Below are positions 35,620 through 50,896 of a DNA stretch of 64,000 nucleotides, one piece after another. Under the pieces are notes generated by a model. It was given only the letters and a program-made list of their open reading frames with translations, was not told the origin of the DNA and made no database searches. How positions within the stretch are numbered: the stretch's first letter is position 1; each line of letters starts with the position of its first letter. The translations under genes and the position numbers were made by a program. Source of the stretch: Bilabrum cf. latius (Eukaryota); the NCBI GenBank assembly GCA_965178125.1, contig OZ237765.1, forward strand, positions 310,001 to 374,000, written 5' to 3'.

Positions 35620-36664
35620 ATGGCTGCTGCGGGTTCAAAGAGAGTCGCCATTCATTGGTTTCGAAAAGGGCTGCGTTTGCATGATAATCCAGCGCTACGC
35701 AAGGCCTGCGAGAGTGGCGATATCGTATACCCAGGTCAGATCACGCAACACGTCACATTGACTGGTCCTCCAAAATTCGGCTTTTCTGTGCCCGCGACTC
35801 CATTCAAAGCCCCCTAAATCTAGCAAGCATATGCCGCAGTATTCATACTTGATCCATGGTTTGCTGGGCCATCCAAGGTAGGCAGGAATAGATACAAGTT
35901 TCTGCTGGAGAGCTTGCGAGTGAGCCGACATGCTTTATTTCAAGGTCACATGCGCCACCAGTGCAAGAAAGTCGAAAGTCCTTACATTAGTATGCTTGAT
36001 ATTGCACAAATCGCAGGACTTAGACAACTCCCTCCGCTCGAAGCACGACAGTCGCCTGCTAGTCCTCAGGGGCAAGCCGAACGAGGTGCTTCCGACTGTG
36101 GTCGAGCAATGGGGAGCTTCCCTACTCACTTTCGAGAGGGACACTGAACCGTACGCCGTGTAGAGAGATGGCAAGATTCAAGAGGAGCTTCCTTCTGACG
36201 TAGAAGTGGAGATATGCAGCTCGCACACCCTCTGGGACATGGACAGGATCAAGGCGGTCTGCAGGGGCAAGCCATCCACCTCCTACCAACCGTTCCTGAA
36301 GAAGGTCTTCAAGGCTATGGGTGCCCCTCCCAAACCGGTGGATGCGCCCGAGAAGGGTTCTGTGGGTGGTTGTGACGAGTGGACGCAACCAGAGGACGGG
36401 CAGTTCGGCCGGTCGTGGTGGAACCGAACCCAATCGAAAGATGGAAGCGGGGGTTCAAAGAAGTCAGCCAGTGCCAGCAGCAGCAGCAGTAGTGACCCGA
36501 AAGGTGGATCGTCCTCGAAGCCCGCTGGGGACTGGCGAGACCAGTACGGCGTGCCCACACTGGGCGAGTGCGGGTATGAGGAAGACGATGGGGGGGAGGA
36601 AGGAGGCTCCACTGGGGCTGCGAAGGGTGGTGCAAGCTCAGCGGTAAGCAACAGCAAGCATCAG

Positions 36665-36742
<78 letters not shown>

Positions 36743-37963
36743 TCATCATCGTCGGTGGCAGCAAGCGCCGCCTCGCACTCGTCAGGCGCCGCTGCGCTCT
36801 CAGAGGCGGAGGTACCTTCGGGTGTCTCCCACAGGGCCTTGTTCCCCGGAGGCGAGTCCGAGGGATTGGCCCGACTCGAGCGGAACCTATCGCGCGGCGC
36901 CTGGCTGGCCGCCTTCGAGAAGCCAAAGACGGCGCCGACCGCCCTCGAGCCAGACACCACTGCCCTGAGCCCCTACCTCAAGTTCGGGTGCTTGTCTGCC
37001 AGGACCTTCTACTGGAGGGTGCAGACAGACGTGTACGACGCGCACAAGGGCAAGCACTCGCAGCCGCCCACCAGCATCCACGGGCAGCTGCTCTGGAGGG
37101 AGTTCTACTATGCCCAGTCGCACTGCTTCGAGAACTACTCTAGGATGGAGGGGAATCCCATCTGCAGGCAGATCCCGTGGGACCACGACGAGGAGAAGAT
37201 CAGGGCGTGGGCAGAGGGCAGGACTGGCTATCCGTTCATCGACGCCTGCATGCGGCAGCTCAAGCATGACGGCTGGCTGCACCATCTAGGCAGGCATGCC
37301 GTGGCCTGCTTCCTCACGCGCGGAGACCTGTGGCAGAGCTGGGAGCAGGGCGCCAAGGTCTTCGATCGTCTGCTTGTGGACGCGGACTGGAGCGTCAACA
37401 ACGGCAACTGGATGTGGCTCAGCGCATCGGCGTACTTCCACCAGTACTTCCGCGTGTACTCGCCGGTGGCCTTCCCGAAAAAGACCGACAAGGAAGGGGC
37501 ATACGTGAAGCACTGGGTCCCTGAGCTCAAGAAGTACCCCAAGAAGTACATCTACGAGCCGTGGAAGGCGCCCAGGGAGCTACAGAGGCAGTGGGGGTGC
37601 GTCGTGGGGGAGAGGAAGGGCGGGGATGGATCCCCGGAGGCCTCAATGGGGCTGTACCCCGGGCGGATTGTGGTGCATGAGGAGGTGAGCAAGCAGAACA
37701 TGGGCAGGATGAAGGAGGCCTATGCTGCCAACAAGGCGGGAGGGGGCAGGGCTGCAGGGAGCGGCGCAGAGATCGGAGCCATCGCGGCGCAACTGCAGCA
37801 CGCAGATGCAGCCGGTGATTTTGCGCCACTAAGGGAGGGCAGGTCTGCAGGCAGCAAGCGGAAGCGTGATGAGATCAGGGATAATGCAGAGCGCCCCAGG
37901 TCTGAAGATGGGAGCCCTGCCGGAGCGCAGGCCCCAGTCTCCAAGCACCATCGGACATCTTGA
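35620..37963 (+). CDS. (6-4) DNA photolyase / animal-type cryptochrome family protein
   Basis: [71 protein letters not shown] and NWMWLS. Introns at 35735-35839 and 35920-36016. One in-frame TAG at 36161; TGA stop. Confidence 0.95.
36668..36754 (+). repeat. (TCG)24(TCA)3(TCG)2 microsatellite encoding poly-Ser in the photolyase linker
   Basis: Directly visible trinucleotide run, in frame. Confidence 0.95.
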
Positions 37964-38617
37964 ATCGCTTGTTGCATGGAGTTTGGATACAAGAAAGCTG
38001 GGTGTGCCAATAGTTGACCATGGTCGATACACAGTACTAGTACTACTAGGCCTCGGCCTTCTGTCCACTCCACAGTTCGAGAGGCCCAAACGTATCGTGT
38101 CGGATAAACTCACCTCAATGCCGCGCCCCTTGATAGCTGGCGGTATTGATCATTCAAACCATACTATTTGTCCGTGCTGTAGGCCTACTAAATCCGACGT
38201 GCGGACTATTCAGAATTCGTAGCTGCACGTCACTCGTGCAGCCAAATTTGTATGAACAGAAGTCTCGTGGTTATTGACTGCGCTCTTTTTCTCATCAAAC
38301 TGTTGCAAGTTGTGCCGTGTCACTACAAGTAGTGCCGTGCCACTTCTTGTAGTCGGCGCTGGAGATATTGTTGTCGCCGGCGGCCTGCCGAGGCATCGCC
38401 GAGCTCGATTTCAGCCAACTTCATCAAGATCGAAAAACTGCTGAAACTGATGACATACCGGTCTTCGCTGGTTAAGTGTTTCGTTATGACCACTTAGTAC
38501 ATTAAATGTTGGGTCGTGGCCCTGCTTAACACTTTGCGGCGAGACTAGTATAGCGTTTGCTTAGTACATACGATCAAACGGTATCATTAATAACGCTTTA
38601 ATTCATGCCCTCTTTTT

Positions 38618-41188
38618 ATGAGATGGGATTTGACCACCGTATCTAGGCCAGCTACTAGCTCGCTGCTACTAGAAGTAGCGCGCACCCACCCTTGGTCGCA
38701 AACCTTGCACCCATTCGAACAAGAAATCATTTGTCTAATGCGCCCGACACGTGCAACTACCGGTGCTAAACATGCACAGTCTAGCTCTAGTTTAGGAATG
38801 GAACGCTGGCGGGTACCAGTAGCTGCGGTGTCGTTGGGTGCAAACGTAGGCTTACCTGTCGTAGGAGCGTAGCAGGGCAGTCACAACTCTGCTGCCGAGT
38901 CCCCTACCGAATCCTCAGGTGGATTAACACCGCATTCATCTGATGAAGTTGAACAGTCGTGTACAAACTCCCCTCATAGCAGACTGGCAAGGTCGGATCG
39001 TAGCAACTCGAGCAACGATTTGAGAGACTCGCGCAGGTCTGCGGCGAAAGGACAACAGATCGATCAGAGGCACGCATTATCTTCTAACTTGGTATAGGGC
39101 GATTAGTATCGGTAGCTACAGTAGGCTCATGCGGATCAGTCAGGTCCCCGTGGTGCGGCATATGCCGTTTTGGTTGCTAGTGAGCCTTAGCATCGAATTC
39201 CCTTTGCGTACAGCAACGGCAGTACATAGTAGTCCCAATAGACGTTCATCCATGAAAAAAGTGCAGATATTGGATCGGCACTATGGTATCCTGGGCGAGT
39301 GGAAGGACAACAGCTGAATGGACCCGGGCGATGCGCGGCAGTACGCGGCGCAAGTATGACGGCGGTAGCTTCTGCGAGTAGCAAAGCTGTTCTTGGTCAC
39401 TCAACGGATCGACCCGCCGCTTTCACGGGCTTGCAGCCTAGCGAAATCCGCAAGGAAGCGATCGGTAGCCTTGCACCTACGGACACGGCTTGGGGGAATC
39501 ATTCTGCCAGCAACCAAGGGTTGCGCCACCTAGGCACAGCAGTAGCTAGGCAGGAAACATCCACATCTAGGGTGCAAACTACGCTTGGAGCCACTGGATT
39601 TGTGCCAAGCGGGGTCATACCCAATGCCGCCCTGCAAAGCGCAGGCCAAGCCAAGCTGGAGCATCCTACGCATCGAGCAGACCAAGCCTCATCTCCGCGA
39701 GGCCTCACCGTGACTTCGATTGCGGCATCAAGTGGTAGGGAAATGAGCCAACCAAGTCTTATGGGGACGTAGGGCAGCACTGAGGCTGGCCAGGGGATGG
39801 TTGGATCTCACGGCGCTATCAGCCAGCCAATGTCCATGGGTACAGGTCATAGGTTCTGGCAGCCATGGTCGCCGCAGGGTGGAGCCAACAGTGAAGATTC
39901 GGGCTCATATGCAAGGATTGGCAAGGGCAATTCACAGGCCGAGACGGGTAGTTCTGGCAGTGCAGAGGTGCATTCATTCGATGCGGGATCATACGGTGAA
40001 CTCGGGTCTTGGCCGCCAAGCACAAGCTCGCGGATGCACACAAACAGCGTTTCACCGGAGCCGTTCGACACATCTTCGTCTGGAGAGATGCCGGGGTCGG
40101 CGCACTCTGGGTGCACAATCGACGGCGAGGCACAAGACAGCGCGGCGATGGTCGAGACAGCGGCGATTCCTCCTCAAGCACGAGCCCTTGTCATGCCAAG
40201 GGCTGCCTCAGGCACTCCTATGCCTCGACCGGGTCTGTTGAGCACTGCATAGGCTGACATCGCGGCTGCAGGCGGGCGTAAGCGGTCGCGGGGCCACCGA
40301 GACGCTCCCGATCATGCCGCTTCACGAATGGCCGCATCGAAAGGCTCCCCGCAGCTGGGCCACCGCCGGTCCTCGAGGCGAAGCAGGAGGCGATCCTTGG
40401 GCCGCGGGACGCTGGCTAGCTTGCGATCATCAACGGCAAGCAGGACAGGCGCCGTGTCTGCGTCTGACACCGGCTACGACGATGACGACGAGGGGGAGGC
40501 GGAAGACCAGCAGAGCGACGTCGACGACGAGGTCGACCCGGAGTGGATCGCGCAAGCCAACGCAGCCCGCATGCCGCCCCGAAAGCACAGGAGGGTGGAT
40601 CAGGCGTCATCCACCACCAGCTCGCGCCCCATGACCCGCCGCGCCTCTGCGGCATCCTCCACTGGCATCTCCACTGGTGCGAGCGGAAGCGCACGCGTGC
40701 GATCGAGCGCTGCCTCCTCCAGCGGGGACCAATCGGCGCAACCCAGCCCATCCCCAGCCGTCCCCCCAGACTCCCCTCTTTCTTACTGCATCAACGATGC
40801 GGGCCGGGAGTTCGTGCAGAGTGACGAGAGGGCGCAGCACCTGCTCGAGGGCGGGGTCGTGAGGATGGACCGACTGGCCATCCGTGGTCGCAAGAGCAGG
40901 GGCGACCAGCTTCTCCCTGAGGCTGCCGTGCTCGTACTGCTGGGCTGGATTTGCCGGCACGTGGAGAATCCGTATCCCGCGCTGAGCACCAAGGAACAGC
41001 TGGCCAAGGACACTGGGCTGCCGGTTGACAGCGTGAAGAACTACCTCACGAACCTTCGCAAGCGGCACTTGAACCCGCTCAAGGCAGGCCGCCCGCCCAG
41101 GAACCAGATGGAGGTAGATCTTCTCACGCTCTTGCGAGCTAAGGGGGTCGCGGTCTCCGCGACGGATTAGGAGGGCAAGCACGGCTGA
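38618..41188 (+). CDS. TALE-class (KN-type) homeodomain transcription factor with long disordered N-terminus (12 in-frame TAG)
   Basis: LLGWICRHVENPYPALSTKEQLAKDTGLPVDSVKNYLTNLRKR carries the TALE PYP signature. One frame from ATG at 38618 (the start could be a later ATG) to TGA at 41186-41188. Confidence 0.8.
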
Positions 41189-41823: not shown

Positions 41824-44800
41824 TCACTGCGCGACACAGGACCGAATCTTCTTTCCACCATCCAACGTGAAGGGCCCTCCCTTGACGTGATAGCTCCTGA
41901 ACCAAGCGTTCTGCCCGAGCTCGCTCACCCACGCTGCCTGCTCCAGCTCCAGCAGCTTTTTCCTCCCGGGGTTCTCAAGGCTCTTGAGCTTGGACTCCTT
42001 CTTGAGCTTGGACAGGCGCTCCTGAAGCGCCTCCCTGTTCTTCCTCCTTATTTTGTGGTCCGGGTCGGGGTTACCAAGGGACAGGCGAAGCGCGTCGAGC
42101 CACACGCCCGGGGCAGGCTCGGGATCCAGGGGCAGCTGGAGGCCGAGGTACCGCCCCACCGCCTGGCCATCCTTCACAATGCCCGGCTTATTCCACAGCA
42201 TCTTGTGGGACACGATCTGGTGCACCTGCACGGCACCCTTGGAGGCCGTCACTTTATCGGCGATGTCTCCTTCCTCGGAGCTGGAGAAGATCAGGGGCAT
42301 GCCCGTGTTGACCACCGCCCTGAACACCCTCTCGCTGTTCACTGCGGCCCGGAGGGTGAATGGCTCGCTGTACTTGCGAGGGGTCACATCGCACGAGGTG
42401 GGAATGGTCGCAAGCAGCAGGAAGCTGGGGTACTCTCCGTTCGTTGACGCGGTGGTCTTGGTCATGAACACGTTCACAGCGTTGGACGGGGCCTGGTGCA
42501 CGGCGGCGCTGCTCATCTCCTCCTGAGATGGGAAGGCCAGAGCGCCCGACTGAGCTTGCCTCAACGCCGTGAACGCCTCCCCAGACGCGCCCAGACGAGC
42601 CTCCACATGAATGCTGCCCTACTGTCCCCGGGAGGGCATCTTGTAGGCCGCGCCCACCCCGTGAGCCAGCACGTTGCTGCCTGTAGTTTTCTAGGCCAAT
42701 GCGGAAACCTTGTTCGGAGCAAGGTCAGTGACCCCATCCTCGTCTGCCAACGTGTCCTGGCTCTCTTCATTCGCGAACCCGAACGGAGGCGCCGGCCGAG
42801 ACAGCAGCACCTGCCCCTGGGCACCGATACCCACCACTGCCCCCGTGTGCGCCGCCCCGGCCGCCACAGGCAGGCCCAGCTCAGGCCATTCCTGCCCCGT
42901 CAGGCCCGTGAATGTCTCCGCCATGCAGGCAGAGCTGCCGAGGTAGTACTCTTTCTGCGCTCGAGCCTCCTTCAAGGTGGCGAGAGGCTGCATTTCAATG
43001 CCCTGGCCCTCTCGGTAGAACTTGCCCATCTCGTTCCTGAAGCCGGCTTCCAGTTCGAGGTCTTTTGACGTATCCACAGAGGCCTCTGTCGCGGTGCAGA
43101 AGCCAAGGAGGTGTGCCAAGACAGTGGCAGGGCACGGCCCAGCCGCCTTGCCCTTCTCTCCGCACATCACGGGCTTGGGCCAGTTGGTTGCAAGCCGAGC
43201 CCCAGCCACTTTCTGCTGCTCGGCGGGCAGCAGGGAGCACATGTGCGCCTTGCGCTGGTCGGATGAGGCCTTGTCAGCCCCCGGCCCGATCGGGCTGGCC
43301 AGCAGCGCCTCGATCGCCGCGCACGTGTGCTCCTTGGGTGGCCCCGGATCCACGTCGTCTCGGCATGCCATGCTCTTGCCATGCACGGCCTTGCCCACCA
43401 GGATGTTGATCATCGCGGCGCACTCGTCACTGCGGGCATGCCCACCCTCCCCGGAGCCCCGCATCACGTTGAGCTCCTCCGCGGTGAGGCCCCCCGCCCC
43501 TCCCACCTTGCCAGTCCCACTCGCGCTCTCGCAGTCTGGCAAGGTCACGCGATGTGCCACGTCATCGCCGAGAAGTGCCCGCACGGCTTCCCTGCGGCCC
43601 ACCGCCAGGGGCATCAGCACCTTGCTGCATTCCTCATGGCTAAACTGGGCCCCATCCTCCATCCTCCGTGTCAAGACCTGGTACACGTGACCGTCCACTG
43701 CGGTCTCCGCAAGGCCTTTCTGCAGCTTTTCGGCCGCGACCAGAACCAGGGCAGTGCGCGCGAGCATGCGCACCAGGTGCTGGCGCGCAGACTCCGCTGT
43801 CCCCGGGGTAGCAGCGTCTCCGTCCAGGGGAGCGGGCGCGCCGGATTCGAAGCAGAGCTCCGCTGCCTCGAACAGGTGGTCCTGGCCTGCCCCCACCGGC
43901 ATAGAACCGATCCTGCGAATCATGCGACAGGCCCAGGGATCTCCTGACTTGAGAAGTGTTGCGATAGGCGCGATCACTTCCCGCAGCACGCCCATGCGCT
44001 ATCCCCCCAGGGTCGCCAGCCACCTTGCAGCACCCGAGTTGCCCTCGGGTAGGCTGGCAGCCTGCACAGCTGCCCCCGTATCCCCGCCCACGGACTGCTG
44101 GTGGTAGTCCATGGCCGAAGTGGTGCTGCCGCTAGACTCCGAGCTGCTCCCGCTGGCCGACAGCTTCACCCCGAATTTCCCGTAGTCCTGTCCGTTGGAT
44201 TGCCCGAAGGACTCGCTCGTGGCAGCATCCGCGAGGTACTCCCGCTCCACCTCCGTCACAAGCTTCTCGCTGCCCTCGTTCTCCAGAGGGCTCGTGATGG
44301 TGGTCTTGTGGGTCTCACTCAGGTTCTTGTCCGCCCCTACAGCGCCCTGCATCCCCTGCAGGCTCATGGATTTGGAGAGGCCGGCCGTAAGTCCCACCGC
44401 ATATTGCCTCCGCGCCTCGTGGTTCGAGCTCGTCTCCTGCACCTTGGCCACCAGCTCGCGCCTCCCGCCCACCGTGACTCCCACCCGTACCTTCCCGAAC
44501 TCGTACACGAACAGAAAGTACTTGCGCTTCTGCTCGGGGGTCATCTTATCAAACGCGGCTCTGACAGCAGGCACAGACACGGCTCCAACGGTGCTCGCCT
44601 CGTCCTGTAGCACGCCACTCACAGCCTCCATGGCCTCTGGGGCCACGGGGAGCGCCCGCTTCCTGTTCTTGAAGTTCTTTGTGAGCTGGCTGCTGTCGAA
44701 CACAGACACCGAGACCGGCCTGCCAGTGGCCCCCGGGGCAGTGGGAGACACGCCTTGCACCTTGCCGTCCACTTCCCTTCCCATGTCCGCGTTTAATGCG

Positions 44801-45821
44801 AGCAGCGTGAACGCATCTTGATTCATGCCCAGCGAATATACCTCTACCTCCGTGCTGGCGGACATCTCGGAGAGGCCAGACGACCTGGAGTCCATGCTGG
44901 CCCACGCCATCGCGCCCCCGATACCTCCTGAAGCGACTGCGCTGGAGATCGTCACGCCGAGGCCGGCCTTGGACTCCATCGACTTGACAACGGAGGCCGA
45001 CTCCCCACCTTGCACGTGAGAGGCAATGCTGCTTGATTGCACGTTAAGTTGCGCCTGCAAAGAAGAGAGAAGGAGAGGGAGAAAGGGCGCTGGTGCCGGT
45101 GGGCAAGGTAGTGTGGGGCTGCCCTTCGTGGTTCGTCCACTTGACTGGCGGGCATGTGGAGCAGGAAGCCCTGTCCCGTGGCCTGCTTGCTGGTTGCACG
45201 TATGCATAGAGGCTCCCGCATGGATTCACCTGGCCTTCCCTGACATACTATCTCACATACTTGGGAATCAGGACCCCTCCGTCGCCTGCTTCTGCCAGCT
45301 CGGCTCGGTAGCACTGCGAGGCCATGGTGATGCTTACAAACGTGAATCAATGCATTGCAGGACTTTACGCATGGATTGAAGGAGTCGCCAATTGAATCTT
45401 GCTGCTCTTTGTGCGATCATCCAGATCACGGCGCTACACTCACTAGAACCGTGGCCGTGTTGTCGGAGCAGTCAATCAGCACGCGGTTGATACCGTCGCC
45501 AACCGACCCGTCCATAAAGGTTCCAAACATTCCAATGCTTGAACCCAGCTCACTGGACCCTGGGATTGCCGCGGAAGGCGCAAGCAATGCCGTGGACTTC
45601 AGTTTCTCTTCGTCAACGATGCCGATGGCAGCTTGCAGCTACTCCCACCGAGACTTGGCATCAAACTCGTAGTCATCTGGCTTTTTTATGTCTAATTTCT
45701 CCATATCTGGAATCTTTCCCTTGCTTGAGATTCCTTGGGACTGCACAAACACGCCGTGAGGTCCCGTAGATGCTCCAGCTGCAACGGCAAAACAGGCGAA
45801 CAAAGGCGCTCCCACGAGCAT
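41824..45821 (-). CDS. Secreted MACPF/perforin-like protein A
   Basis: Signal peptide MLVGAPLFACFAVAAGA. MACPF-like elements YFLFVYEFGKVRVGVTVGGR, Ser/Thr-rich TMH-like segments and SVGGD..W..L..API..LL. Probable introns at about 45314-45443 and 45056-45228. TAG at 45639, about 45248, 43999, 42691 and about 42620; ends TGA-TGA. Confidence 0.6.
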
Positions 45822-46133
45822 ATTAGGCAGCGAGTAAACAAAGAGATTACCTGCTTCAACAATACACTCCCTTCGAAAGCAAGGCTCTAGAGACAAGGGG
45901 CTTGTAACCCTTCCAGAGTTCGATCCACCACTGGCTTCTCGCAATGTCTACTTCCGGTTATATCAACTATAACGTGCAGTTGTGAAGACTGATAAAAGAC
46001 AATGCTGGCTTCAACAATTTGTCGGCCCAGATTCACAGTATAATCCACGCATTTGTCAGCCTGGGCAAGTGTTTCTGCTACTGTTATCAATTTAAGGTGG
46101 TACTTGTTGCATTGACTTAATACCGCTGCCCAA

Positions 46134-49100
46134 ATGCCCACCACGAGACTCATCCATCCATCGGTGGTTTTGCTGGGTATTGCTTTGCTACGGCATGCCC
46201 CCGTGGCGTTATCTGGGCCTGTCGTACGTCAGACTGGACCAGTAGGTTATGGCCTTGACAACTACCTCGGTAATGCCGCAGAGGCAGTGTTTGAGTGAGC
46301 AATATTGCCATTGGATCCGAGCCGTAGCATCTAGGCGAACTCGAGTGAAGTCTTGCGTATGAGCTGCAGCGTATCACTTGCAAAGCGCAGGACATCATGT
46401 CAACAGGGATCGAGAGAGGACGGCAGCTATGAAGGGCGGGTCCTTCCAATGTGCACGAGTGATGACAAGCACGGGACCATTGGTCACCCAAAGCTATCTC
46501 GCAAGCCGAGCCATTCTACAGAGATGGACAGCTTCGTGTATTCGACCGTGGATACGGACGGATCAAGCAAGAGCCGCGAGTTCGGGTTCGGACTGGCAGG
46601 CTCGGGCCAGTTCGGGCCCGTCGCAGCCACCGTGTCTGCCTCCCTCGACGTGACGGGGAGCAGCTCACACTCGTCGACCAAGTCCGACAAAGTTGCCGGA
46701 ACCAAGCTGACCGTCAAGACATTTTCTTCGCGAGTAACCACTGAGGGCGGCGGAGCCGTGTGCGAGACGGGGGAGGATGACAAGTAGAGCTGTGTGTCGA
46801 TGTCCACGAGCCTGTTCGACGTGACGAGTGCGTTTGCGGACGCCGTGATGCAGCTGCCCACCCCTAAAGCCGGCGAAGGAGACGAAGACGGTGGCTAGTA
46901 CGCCTCCACGCTGCAGAACTACCTGCCATTCGTGCAATAGTACGGAGACGTGGTGGTGATGGGGGCGGAGTACGGGGCGAGAGAGGCTGTGAGCACGGAA
47001 GTGGGCAGCAGCAGCAGCAAGAGCAGCTCGAAGAAATCAGTGGCGGCGTCCATCGCGGGGACCCGCAAGTACCTCGACAAGATGAGCGTGCCCGCAGGGG
47101 TTAAGGTCACCACCACGTACACCAAGGAGTCGGACAACGCCATCGGGCAGACGATCGACCTGTACATCAAGCAGTCCTACGACACTAGGAAAGGGACCCC
47201 GGGGCATAGCGGGGACGAGGGTGTGGATCTCATCGAGGCGGGGAACAAGGCTGTTCCCAAGGTCGAGGTGAACCTGGGCTTCAGCAGGAGCTCTGAGACA
47301 TCCAGCCAGGCAGCCATGGAGGCGCTAGAGAACAAGCTGACGTACTACGGAGGTGACACCCGCAAGCTGTCTCCGGGCGCCGAGGGCGCGGATCGATCCG
47401 ACTGGCTGAAGAGCATAGAGGAGCAGGCAGTGCCCGTGAGCACGCAGACCGCGCCCATCCTCTCTGCGCTCGCGCTGCGAGTGCCCTGTGTCGCGGGGGA
47501 CCGAACCAAGCCACTGGCCGACGGGAGTCTGACCGGTGAAAGAGATACGCTGGGAGCCAAGTTCGCAACGTCTGAAGCGGCTGGGTTCAAAGACACGAGG
47601 GAGGTAAAGGCCCCTGGCTTGGGGCAGCTCCTTGCTGGCGCGCTGGGGGCGGCGTCTTCTGCCAAGGGCAAGGGTGCCTTCGGTGCCATCACCGACCCCA
47701 AGATGCTGGACCAGCTGGCCGTGCTCACGGAGCGGAGGATGTCGTGCACGGGAGATGCACGGGGGTGTCCGTCCGCTGGTCGTCCCTTCCTAGACTGGGC
47801 CTCCTCCCGTGGGGGCTCGAGCAGCAAGGAGGTGTGGAAGCAGCTGGGCGGGGAGGAGCTCAAGCACGACGCAGAGTACCTGGGGGAACAAGCCGTGGAA
47901 CACGCGCTGCTCACTGGATTCCTGCCGCTGCCCAAGACCGCGGTGCTGGTGGTGCAGTCGGGCTGCTCCCTGGCCGGAGGCACTGAGGGAAAGACTGTGG
48001 CTGTGGCGTACTTCGAGCCGCTGGACCGTTTCGTGGCCATTGTGGTCGGTGGGAAGGTCGCTGCCGGGAATGGAGCCCGGGTGATGGAGCTAGGGGTGGC
48101 GTTTGCCTGCGACTCGGCTCAGTCGCTCGCCCAGGACCGCGTGGTGCTGCACGCAGGAAAGGGCAAGGCAGAACTGCAGTTCCTGCGCGAGGCCTTCGTG
48201 CTTGCAGCTGCGGCCTCTGGGGAGCTCCAGGGCAGGGAAGCCGCCGGAGAGAAAACAGAAGAGAAAGGCGAGTTCATGCCGCTGTTCTTCGGGTAGGGAG
48301 GGGCCCCCGAGGGCATGCAGACTGCCTGGGAAGCGGGCGTTGAGCTCGCCGAGCGAGCCAAGGTGGTGGCCAAGGCAACGATGCTGCTGCAGGACGAGGG
48401 GGGCGCGAAGGCGCCCAGCGTCGAGAAAGCCAAGGAGGAAGTGTTGGATGTGGACCTGGATGACTTGATGCAGCTGGGCGGATCTGCTGTGCCCCGGGCG
48501 CACACGCCCGTCGATGGCCTGCTGCAGATGGTGACTGGGAATGTGCAGAGCAGGAAAGCGAGCGTGCGTGGGTTCGCTCGCCGGGCACTCCACGCGCACG
48601 AGCACGAGCACGAGCACAGGCACAAACATGGCCACACACACGAACACGGACGCAGCCGCGGACAAGGACACGTTGCTTCCAAGTAGTTGCTGGCTGTGCA
48701 TCGAGTCGCTCACCATGGTTCACGTGGACTGGGCAAGGCCAGTGAACAGGCCACCCCGGCTGATCTGGGCGCAGAGGCCATGCGGTTTCGCAGCAGAGCT
48801 GGCGCCTCGCATTCAGCAGACATGTCCGCGGCATCCATGTCTGAGTCTGGCACCCAGTCCGGCTCAGCATCGAGAGCAGGCACGGCGACGAGAGCCATGT
48901 CAGTGGCTCGCGCGACTCACCGCCTGCCCCTGCCCATGCCAAAGGACGAGTGCCTCGTGTAGGTGCTGCTGCATATCCTGACGGGGGAATGGGATGAAGA
49001 TGAAGCAGAGGAGGGGTGCAAGGGCGCCATTGCCGCCGTCAAGTCGCTGTCTGCCGCGCTGGATGACGGTGAGCTGGAGGTGCCGGAGGAGTGGAACCTG

Positions 49101-49559
49101 CAGGCAGGCAAGCAGGAGTGCATTCTTGGAGGGGTAGAGAACGCGCTGCGGCGGCAGGAGCATGCGAGAGCTGCTCTAAAGGAGCTGCCGAAGCTGCAGA
49201 AGCAGCTCAACGCGTATGCTTAGATGCAGCAGGACATCGTAGACGCGATGGCGAAGGGGGGCATGGGTGCAAGCGCAGTGTGCGCCGGGTAGGAAGAGTA
49301 GTCGATCGAGCAGCAGAGGATAGGAGTCCTCTTCGGGTTCACCTTCGGGGGTCGCTCTCCTGTGCCTGGTTTCCCCTGCGAGCAGTAGCTGGTCGCCTCT
49401 AGGTCGCTAGAGCAGCTCAGGAGCTCCGAGCCGGGCACAACACCCAGCGAGGCAGCCAGGATGGAGACGAAGAGGATGTCGGAGAAGGGCTGGAAGAGTA
49501 TCAAGGACAGCGTGGGGAAAACGAAAGCGGCGGAGATCCCTTTCACCATCTAGCCGTGA
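46134..49559 (+). CDS. Secreted MACPF/perforin-like protein B
   Basis: Signal peptide, VGYGLDNYLG, F.DAV.QLP, YLPFVQ*YGDVVVMGAEYGAR (cf. F..YGTH.......GG) and YYGGD..DWLKSIEEQAVPV..API..L. Intron at 46295-46390. About 11 in-frame TAG; TGA at 49557. Confidence 0.7.
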
Positions 49560-49819: not shown

Positions 49820-50896
49820 TCAGTGCCCAACCGCCCTAATCGGCCCCGCATCCGCCTTGGACGTTGCCATCCTGGATATAAAGCTGAATTCGTGGTCCCT
49901 TGCGAATTCCTTGAAGGTCTTGAGCTTGGGGAAGGTCGCCATGGCCAGCAGGGCTGGGTCAGTCTCCGTCTCGCCCTTCACGGTGCCATCCCGCAGCAGC
50001 CGAGAGGCTGCCGCAGTCGCCTCCGCGGCGTCACCCTCGCCGTACTTGACCCTGCACCTGCCCATCTCCTCCTCCTCGCTGGCATCTACGGCGGTGATGG
50101 TCTTGTCAACGGCAGCGCCGATGGCAGCGGCAACCTCGGATGGAGACAGCTGCTCTGGCCCCGACAGGTCCACTGCCCGACCGCAAAGGTCCGCGCGATC
50201 AGAAGGGGGGGCCGTGGCGATGGCTGCAAGCACGGCACCCACGTCCCGCGCGTCGATCCAGCCGATTTTCGTGTCTTTGCCCAGAGCCGTGGGCAGCACG
50301 CCGGCGGCCTGCACGGCCCCCGACACGCCGAGCAGGTTCTGCATGAACAGCTGGGGCCGCACGCTCACCCAGTCAGTGCACTTGCTGGACTTTAAGTGCT
50401 CCTCTACGGCAGCATGCCCGTGGAAGTATGTCCCTTTGAGGGACTCCTCGTCCATGAGCGGCCCGTACCCAGACACCTTCACCATCACGGCGTCGTCTCT
50501 CTGCGCAATAACCTTGTCCACGACTGCGGTCTCCAGTTCGGCTTGGTCTACGCCAGATTTATTGCCGCACGTAAGAATGCAATGCGTAGCACCTTCGCAC
50601 GCGCTTTCCAGGCTGGCTGGATCGCTCATGTCCCCCTTGACGATGATCGCAGAACGGAGCTCTTTTTGCGCCTTCTTCGCAGCTGCTGAGTCTGGGTTGC
50701 GGGTAAGGATGCGAATTTCATCTGATCCCCTGCAGAGGTCCTCCAACGCTACCGCTGCACCACTTCCGACCGCACCAAGTCCCCCAGTCACCAGGAAGAC
50801 TCTTGGGTCGCTGCCACCCAATCCAACAGACAGCGATAGTCCCCTCGACAGCGACAACCCCCGGGGTGGCAGCTTAATATCACTAACAGCTGCCAT
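49820..50896 (-). CDS. NmrA-like NAD(P)-binding atypical SDR oxidoreductase
   Basis: FLVTGGLGAVGS Rossmann motif, GDMSDPASLESACEG, VRPQLFMQN, IDARDVG and LSGPEQLS. Intact intronless ORF with TGA stop and no TAG. Confidence 0.9.
   Translation of the reverse strand: MAAVSDIKLPPRGLSLSRGLSLSVGLGGSDPRVFLVTGGLGAVGSGAAVALEDLCRGSDEIRILTRNPDSAAAKKAQKELRSAIIVKGDMSDPASLESACEGATHCILTCGNKSGVDQAELETAVVDKVIAQRDDAVMVKVSGYGPLMDEESLKGTYFHGHAAVEEHLKSSKCTDWVSVRPQLFMQNLLGVSGAVQAAGVLPTALGKDTKIGWIDARDVGAVLAAIATAPPSDRADLCGRAVDLSGPEQLSPSEVAAAIGAAVDKTITAVDASEEEEMGRCRVKYGEGDAAEATAAASRLLRDGTVKGETETDPALLAMATFPKLKTFKEFARDHEFSFISRMATSKADAGPIRAVGH

Follow-up and report, generated by a model that had tools for sequence, protein, structure and literature searches.

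Two divergent MACPF genes that recur as a pair in a protist genome, candidate subunits of one secreted pore

Do two large genes that diverge from one short spacer encode two parts of a single complex, or two proteins that only happen to be neighbors? The question is raised by a stretch of Bilabrum cf. latius DNA, 64,000 nucleotides long and called the window here (C31:310001-374000 of a 48.6-Mb eukaryotic assembly), in which gene A (41824..45821, minus strand) and gene B (46134..49559, plus strand) are transcribed away from each other. An earlier note on this DNA had described two secreted MACPF-like genes of about 1100 to 1200 amino acids with close divergent start codons, and had proposed that they form a two-component pore. 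That description of the genes holds: the spliced frames are open, giving 1221 amino acids for A and 1109 for B, and the ATG codons stand 313 bp apart. On the comparisons given below we lean toward the view that A and B belong together in a single secreted MACPF complex, each supplying one of its two subunits, and that this complex forms a membrane pore. The case for their partnership is stronger than it had been in the earlier note, since A and B are found together repeatedly at other loci of the genome.

The A/B pair across the genome

Matches to the Pfam MACPF family, PF01823, number 19 in the genome, and these matches together with paralog searches placed A-type genes on six contigs. The searches within the genome score the best candidates only, so that copy counts are lower bounds; the two window B queries retrieved only window B. 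An adjacent B-type gene was found at all six of the A-type lineages. The two genes stand head to head in the window (contig C31) and on contigs C37, C6, C23, and C34, and in tandem on C1. On C34, the A gene is followed by 200 N, beyond which lies a B-type gene, oriented as expected and represented by its C-terminal 352 residues. Because the same two gene types are adjacent on six contigs, A and B likely act together. For C23, a B match had led us to expect a pair before the sequence was examined, and the divergent A/B arrangement was found there in full. Three other matches were likewise treated as predictions: the pair at C6:491k was found across an inserted element, C1 gave a tandem partner, and the 5'-truncated A fragment at C6:125k had no B.

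The partner is retained where A identities across loci drop to 16%, and the frames of both partners, each about 1,100 codons long, are still open at 16 to 20% identity. That both are intact at such distances argues for function; mirrored divergence is expected from linkage. When pairwise identities are compared over five loci, the A matrix correlates with the B matrix with an r of 0.88, the best of 120 permutations. In the domain tree, the A genes group as (window, C34), (C23, (C37, C6)), and (C1, P0014) and the B genes as (window, P0004) and (C23, (C37, C6)), and the groupings match for the rows present. The A genes make up one side of a branch with a support of 85 in this tree, which omits three long or redundant "other" rows and from which the C34 B, having no domain, is absent. 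The 10-kb flanks of the window pair showed no homology to the flanks of the five other loci (1.5 to 10 kb each), and among those other flanks only short matches were seen (C34, C6, and C23). The spacing of candidate signal-peptide ATG codons, 313 bp in the window, is 290 bp on C6 and 233 to 257 bp on C23; on C37, the B start was not found when this spacing was examined.

Several other features of these loci were observed. Tandem repeats of 67 to 72 bp flank the C6 unit. Arrays of truncated A copies, many with long open frames, lie at C37:288844-311296, C6:265582-402319, and C23:563318-568465. Further ordinary MACPF genes were seen at C11:325190-328255, C11:346543-348825, C1:20963-36674, and C31:558415-560403, some of them arranged as inverted pairs and some with two MACPF domains in one frame. 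An element of 23.6 kb and about 30% GC (C6:466481-490128), with terminal inverted repeats of 1.6 kb (96%) and a 5-bp target duplication, is found in the 5' part of one A copy. It carries an rve integrase and chromodomain, a Prim-Pol, and an ATPase, with in-frame TAG as in the host (3 kb of the element were left unread). The element resembles an endogenous virophage or Polinton-like virus.

MACPF domains, hairpins, and C-terminal regions

The assignment to MACPF is direct for B, which matches PF01823 over 46809..47468 (plus strand) with 30.5 bits, above the curated cut-off of 21.5, and an E value of 5e-7. Gene A itself matched no Pfam family at an E value of ≤1, so the Pfam check proposed for both proteins succeeded for B and failed for A; three of the five A paralogs (C37, C6, and C23, and not C34 or C1) do match PF01823. 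In hhalign, a profile of A-type proteins (A5) aligned with a profile of B-type proteins (A6) at 97.7%, with an E value of 1.9e-12 over 301 columns (96.6% in an earlier run). The alignment is confined to the N-terminal MACPF domain, at 13% identity, and extends nowhere else. Together with Foldseek it sets the limits of the A domain at approximately 43940..45015 (minus strand; coordinates worked out from residue numbers). With a structural model of A as the query, the first 32 rows listed by Foldseek were all MACPF structures, the best with an E value of 8.4e-3, and VIA-align gave Z scores of up to 6.9, with a root mean square deviation of 7.4 and 212 residues aligned. These model results support a MACPF fold without proving it. 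A single-sequence fold of the A N-terminal part was unusable, with a predicted local distance difference test (pLDDT) score of 35, and was set aside. Sequence searches of the PDB with single proteins and profiles gave nothing significant; the best matches were TgPLP1 (E value, 0.27) and, with the A profile, pleurotolysin B (E value, 0.19). We count A as a MACPF protein because three of five paralogs match Pfam, its profile aligns with that of B, and MACPF structures head the list of matches to its weak model. The MACPF identity of both genes is supported in this way.

The MACPF signature is given as Y/F-G-T/S-H-X7-G-G in PMC5483515. The aromatic-Gly and the closing glycine are retained in both A and B and the T/S-H pair is replaced in both; the A signature is one residue short, and in B the last pair is Gly-Ala. 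In the GG-Xn-W motif, the Trp lies about 22 residues past the second GG in A and about 18 in B, and this motif is retained in 12 of 13 A/B proteins. Parallel motifs, signature-like and GG...W, are thus present in both proteins, as had been read from the window at the outset.

The second transmembrane hairpin region (TMH2), measured from the signature glycines to the second GG, is unusually large. It has 125 residues in A (about 44463-44089, minus strand) and 123 in B (about 46980-47348, plus strand), and its length is 121 to 160 residues in all 13 A/B proteins measured versus 60 to 68 in all 10 other MACPF domains measured. The first hairpin region (TMH1) has about 60 residues, as counted by eye from the alignment and not by script. 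Alternating hydrophobic strands occur in both hairpin regions of A and B, and those of TMH2 lie about 20 to 30 residues from each end; no shuffle control was run for either observation. From that position of the strands, the extra 60 or so residues appear to sit at the hairpin tip. A TMH2 doubled in this way would be new to MACPF protein design, and it raises the question of how a big hairpin tip would cross or avoid the bilayer.

Each protein has about 700 further residues outside the MACPF domain with no fold assigned, and the C-terminal regions differ, as had been claimed. In A, Cys conservation and helix prediction point to a Cys-rich helical module with saposin-like spacing (43084..43437, minus strand). 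Four of its Cys residues are invariant among seven sequences, and its helices have mostly pLDDT scores of 70 to 86. Spacing and helices are compatible with the six-Cys helical saposin fold; searches with the module gave no saposin row in Pfam or the PDB and none among a further 50 rows listed. Behind its MACPF domain A also has a poorly predicted beta region. In B, on the plus strand, there is first a middle domain (47580..48350) that is common to the B paralogs and was used to recognize the C1 partner. It is followed by a basic and His-rich stretch (48560..48700), possibly a processing site or metal-binding linker, with similar stretches in the B paralogs, and by a Cys-containing tail (48950..49559) that the C34 B fragment matches at 28%. 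No complement modules, apicomplexan C-terminal repeat, SPRY, or thioredoxin were among the Pfam matches of A and B at an E value of ≤1. On C1 (C1:2112509-2117970), the B-like gene in tandem with the A gene also has an A-like Cys module and tail, and it is possibly near the ancestral architecture of both types.

A proposed joint pore and its alternatives

In the joint pore that we favor, a shared promoter of about 120 to 300 bp would give roughly matched expression of A and B. The two proteins would pair edge to edge via their MACPF sheets, either alternating, as in stonustoxin, or as an anchor and a pore-former, as in cholesterol-dependent cytolysin (CDC)-like proteins and complement. The C-terminal regions, unrelated to each other, would have separate tasks: in A, the Cys-rich helical module would bind a lipid or target, and in B, the basic and His-rich stretch would be a switch operated by proteolysis or pH. 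A beta-barrel would then form as both hairpins unfurl, and the 60 or so extra TMH2 residues would be a lock before insertion or a collar on the trans side after it. The target would likely be prey that has been engulfed or captured, a guess based on the assumed lifestyle. A more specific version is tentative: a lineage-specific two-MACPF pore of a free-living protist, in which a beta-hairpin module of about 60 residues at the TMH2 tip of each subunit would have to cross the target membrane and would make a second ring beyond it, with A/B pairs matched by locus and a His/basic switch in B.

A number of findings weigh against a joint pore, some from the loci and some from the domain itself. The 5' part of the C34 B gene lies behind the 200-N gap. 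The B-like gene on C1 shares the strand of A and lies immediately upstream of it, tandem and not divergent; this gene falls below the hidden Markov model cut-off and was recognized through its B middle domain by hhalign (92.8%). The B group is not one clade in either of two trees, and mirrored trees, which linked genes give by duplicating together, are not by themselves a sign of binding. Some ordinary MACPF genes, on C11 and C1, likewise stand head to head. A and B might instead be co-regulated yet separate homo-oligomeric perforin-like proteins, acting on different membranes or in successive steps and linked by the shared promoter alone. The MACPF domain is complete in each protein and includes both hairpin regions, and each has a C-terminal region of its own; a short shared promoter suffices to force joint duplication, and the same alternative was raised for Plasmodium PLP3/4/5 in PMC5618198. 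However, the six lineages found include no intact, long-diverged lone A, and on C1, where the pair is tandem, the linkage cannot be due to a shared divergent promoter. We regard separate pores as unlikely.

At the level of the domain, the model of A, built from 13 sequences, has a mean pLDDT of 46, mostly below 50 in the MACPF part, and Foldseek gave no rows at an E value of 0.001. The MACPF signature is degenerate in both A and B. Pore-forming MACPF proteins are expected to have two hairpin regions of matching length, and those of A and B do not match; according to PMC5483515, astrotactins are marked by unequal hairpins (one is shortened there) that would not match in a barrel. The enlarged TMH2, confined to the A/B proteins in the set compared, and the degenerate signatures would suit an A/B complex that is not lytic. 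Such a MACPF heteropolymer would have been repurposed as a scaffold for extrusomes, the cell coat, adhesion, or signaling, with TMH2 blocking or replacing insertion. The 700 or so further residues per protein would leave room for such a role, and nonlytic MACPF proteins exist, according to the same source. We nevertheless think this rather improbable, given the alternating hydrophobic strands at the usual sheet distance on both sides of the TMH2 insertion and the near-universal retention of the GG...W motif.

Recent copies provide the remaining points against a joint pore. The A main exon is whole in six C6 copies. The neighboring B is intact in three of these; of the other B genes, one has a frame break, one consists of the last ~355 residues only, and one belongs to the pair that is split by the 23.6-kb element. 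Many 5'-truncated A copies without a B lie downstream of the C37, C6, and C23 pairs. Such losses and the repeats around the C6 unit would fit a pairing without functional meaning, left over from an old inverted duplication and copied along in later block duplications. This reading is very improbable given the frames that stay open in both partners at 16 to 20% identity and the flanking genes that did not move with the pairs.

A joint A/B pore would work like stonustoxin, CDC-like proteins, or complement, with which it would share only the MACPF core, being a member of none. Stonustoxin alpha and beta are paralogous MACPF/CDC chains that pair via their MACPF domains, in a pore of 10 heterodimers (PMC8704401). 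Fish cytolysin sequences are 45 to 94% identical and follow one plan (MACPF/CDC, FAT, THX, and PRYSPRY), whereas A and B share 13% identity, in the MACPF domain only, and stonustoxin was not among the rows listed in the A/B sequence or fold searches. CDCL-L and CDCL-S of Bacteroidota are likewise two related pore-forming proteins in one complex, with proteolytic activation (PMC11952106). They are bacterial, belong to the CDC branch, and combine a long and a short chain at about 1:29, whereas A and B are eukaryotic, belong to the MACPF branch, and are both large. The complement membrane attack complex (C6, C7, C8alpha/beta, and C9) also puts paralogous MACPF proteins into one pore, and its chains rank high in the list of fold matches to the A model. 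Those matches are weak, at or below the best VIA-align values given above, and A and B have no Pfam match to complement modules. Pleurotolysin A/B is a two-component MACPF pore whose B component was the best, nonsignificant PDB match of the A profile; one component only is MACPF and the other is an aegerolysin. Plasmodium PLP3/4/5 are protist MACPF paralogs for which heteromultimerization has been proposed (PMC5618198). The difference is that these belong to a parasite, that the proposal came from a lack of redundancy, and that A and B have no match to the apicomplexan C-terminal repeat.

Vertebrates, fungi, and bacteria have documented two-component MACPF/CDC pores, and in Plasmodium such pores are proposed only. 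A pair retained through at least five old duplications offers natural matched and mismatched sets for studying partner choice in hetero-oligomeric pores. If prey killing proves to be the use, the pair would also open the way in which small phagotrophic protists kill their prey to concrete study.

Related sequences, transcripts, and the genetic code

A HMMER search over 1.84 billion representatives gave 17 matches, 16 of them apparent fragments of the family and 1 an ordinary MACPF protein; a word-index search with the A-type alignment A3, unlike the full HMMER search, gave no match. The B-type match P0004 is 52% identical and the A-type matches P0006, P0012, and P0013 are 38 to 47% identical. 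All four come from a Logan contig of 8,139 nt (10 of 19 matches were looked up), taken to be the same contig because the size is equal, which suggests a linked A/B pair at about 40 to 50% identity in a related species. P0017 and P0018 were considered as another species and rejected: by eye, they match the C23 A gene letter for letter and are therefore not independent. A metagenome scan with B patterns gave 229 pattern matches, of which none was confirmed. MACPF expansion has reportedly been seen in Provora predators; a literature search for MACPF in Provora listed no paper. Term look-up found no mention of MACPF in 10.64898/2026.06.25.734631, 10.64898/2026.10.13.758971, and PMC11412368. No description of such an A/B pair was found in the literature covered; subscription papers and bioRxiv supplements lie outside that coverage and may bear on novelty.

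Both A and B are transcribed and spliced in two studies, X1 and X2, which are guessed to be RNA, no run being recorded as such. Contigs of both skip the three GT-AG introns, and X4 covers the stretch unspliced. On the minus strand, A consists of exon 1 (45444..45821, with the ATG at 45821), intron 1 (45314..45443, 130 nt, its joint seen in X1 and X2 and absent in X4), exon 2 (45257..45313), intron 2 (45055..45256, 202 nt), and a main exon (41824..45054) with three in-frame TAG codons and a terminal TGA. On the plus strand, B has exon 1 (46134..46294, with the ATG at 46134), one intron (46295..46390, 96 nt), and a main exon (46391..49559) with 11 in-frame TAG codons and a terminal TGA. The inter-ATG spacer (45822..46133) is common to both and is a candidate bidirectional promoter. 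About 120 bp of it (about 45909-46025) has no RNA contig cover from either side; the A-side end of this gap was worked out from record offsets, and contigs cannot reveal true transcript starts. Both N termini are hydrophobic and signal-peptide-like, in keeping with the signal peptides of the earlier note: the best 11-residue mean is 2.2 in A and 2.5 in B, and later 19-residue windows are all ≤1.6, so that neither protein has a membrane-spanning window farther along. The secretion signals are predicted from hydropathy alone and not from a signal-peptide predictor. Run X8 gives almost no cover of the stretch, neighboring genes included, and so is no test of co-regulation. Contig depth (A, 13 to 15, and B, 15, in X1; A, 33 to 34, and B, 31, in X2; an NmrA-like neighbor, 76 in X1 and 54 in X2) cannot rank the expression of genes and was not used as evidence. 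The neighbors at 35930-41188 and 49820-50896 are photolyase/cryptochrome, TALE-type homeobox, and NmrA-like genes, which were not found beside the other pairs.

The assembly contains two 18S rRNA types that are about 77 to 83% identical, a 1,700-nt type in a tandem array (C12:950271-1029808) and a 1,802-nt copy (C95:6099-7900). The latter may belong to a second eukaryote in the assembly.

Long frames in the window are open only with TAG read through. The genes had been called invisible under the standard code; they are disrupted by it but not invisible, as open reading frames of 230 to 445 amino acids remain. The TAG=Gln translation used for them was borne out by dynein columns and by codon swaps on C6. 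In the conserved columns of 12 dynein paralogs, Gln is faced by 13 of 30 TAG codons, 115 of 190 CAG codons, and 9 of 19 CAA codons, and among near-identical C6 copies TAG swaps with CAA or CAG in six of eight cases (three of four sites). A 95%-identical database protein has Gln at the position of one TAG of window B. Three TAG sites in PRP8, which face Pro, His, and a variable column, speak against the Gln reading. Among the 120 rows listed of 2,907, PRP8 has no relative that exceeds 72% at full cover. There is no internal TAA in 12 long open reading frames, one of which ends in TAA. By these sequence comparisons TAG is Gln, and TAA and TGA stay stops. TAG=Gln with TAA kept as a stop is here the nuclear code of a flagellate-like protist of 60% GC. 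The TAG=Gln code is listed for Iotanema spirale and some ciliates in PMC11687900, and the present one may be a further independent case of it.

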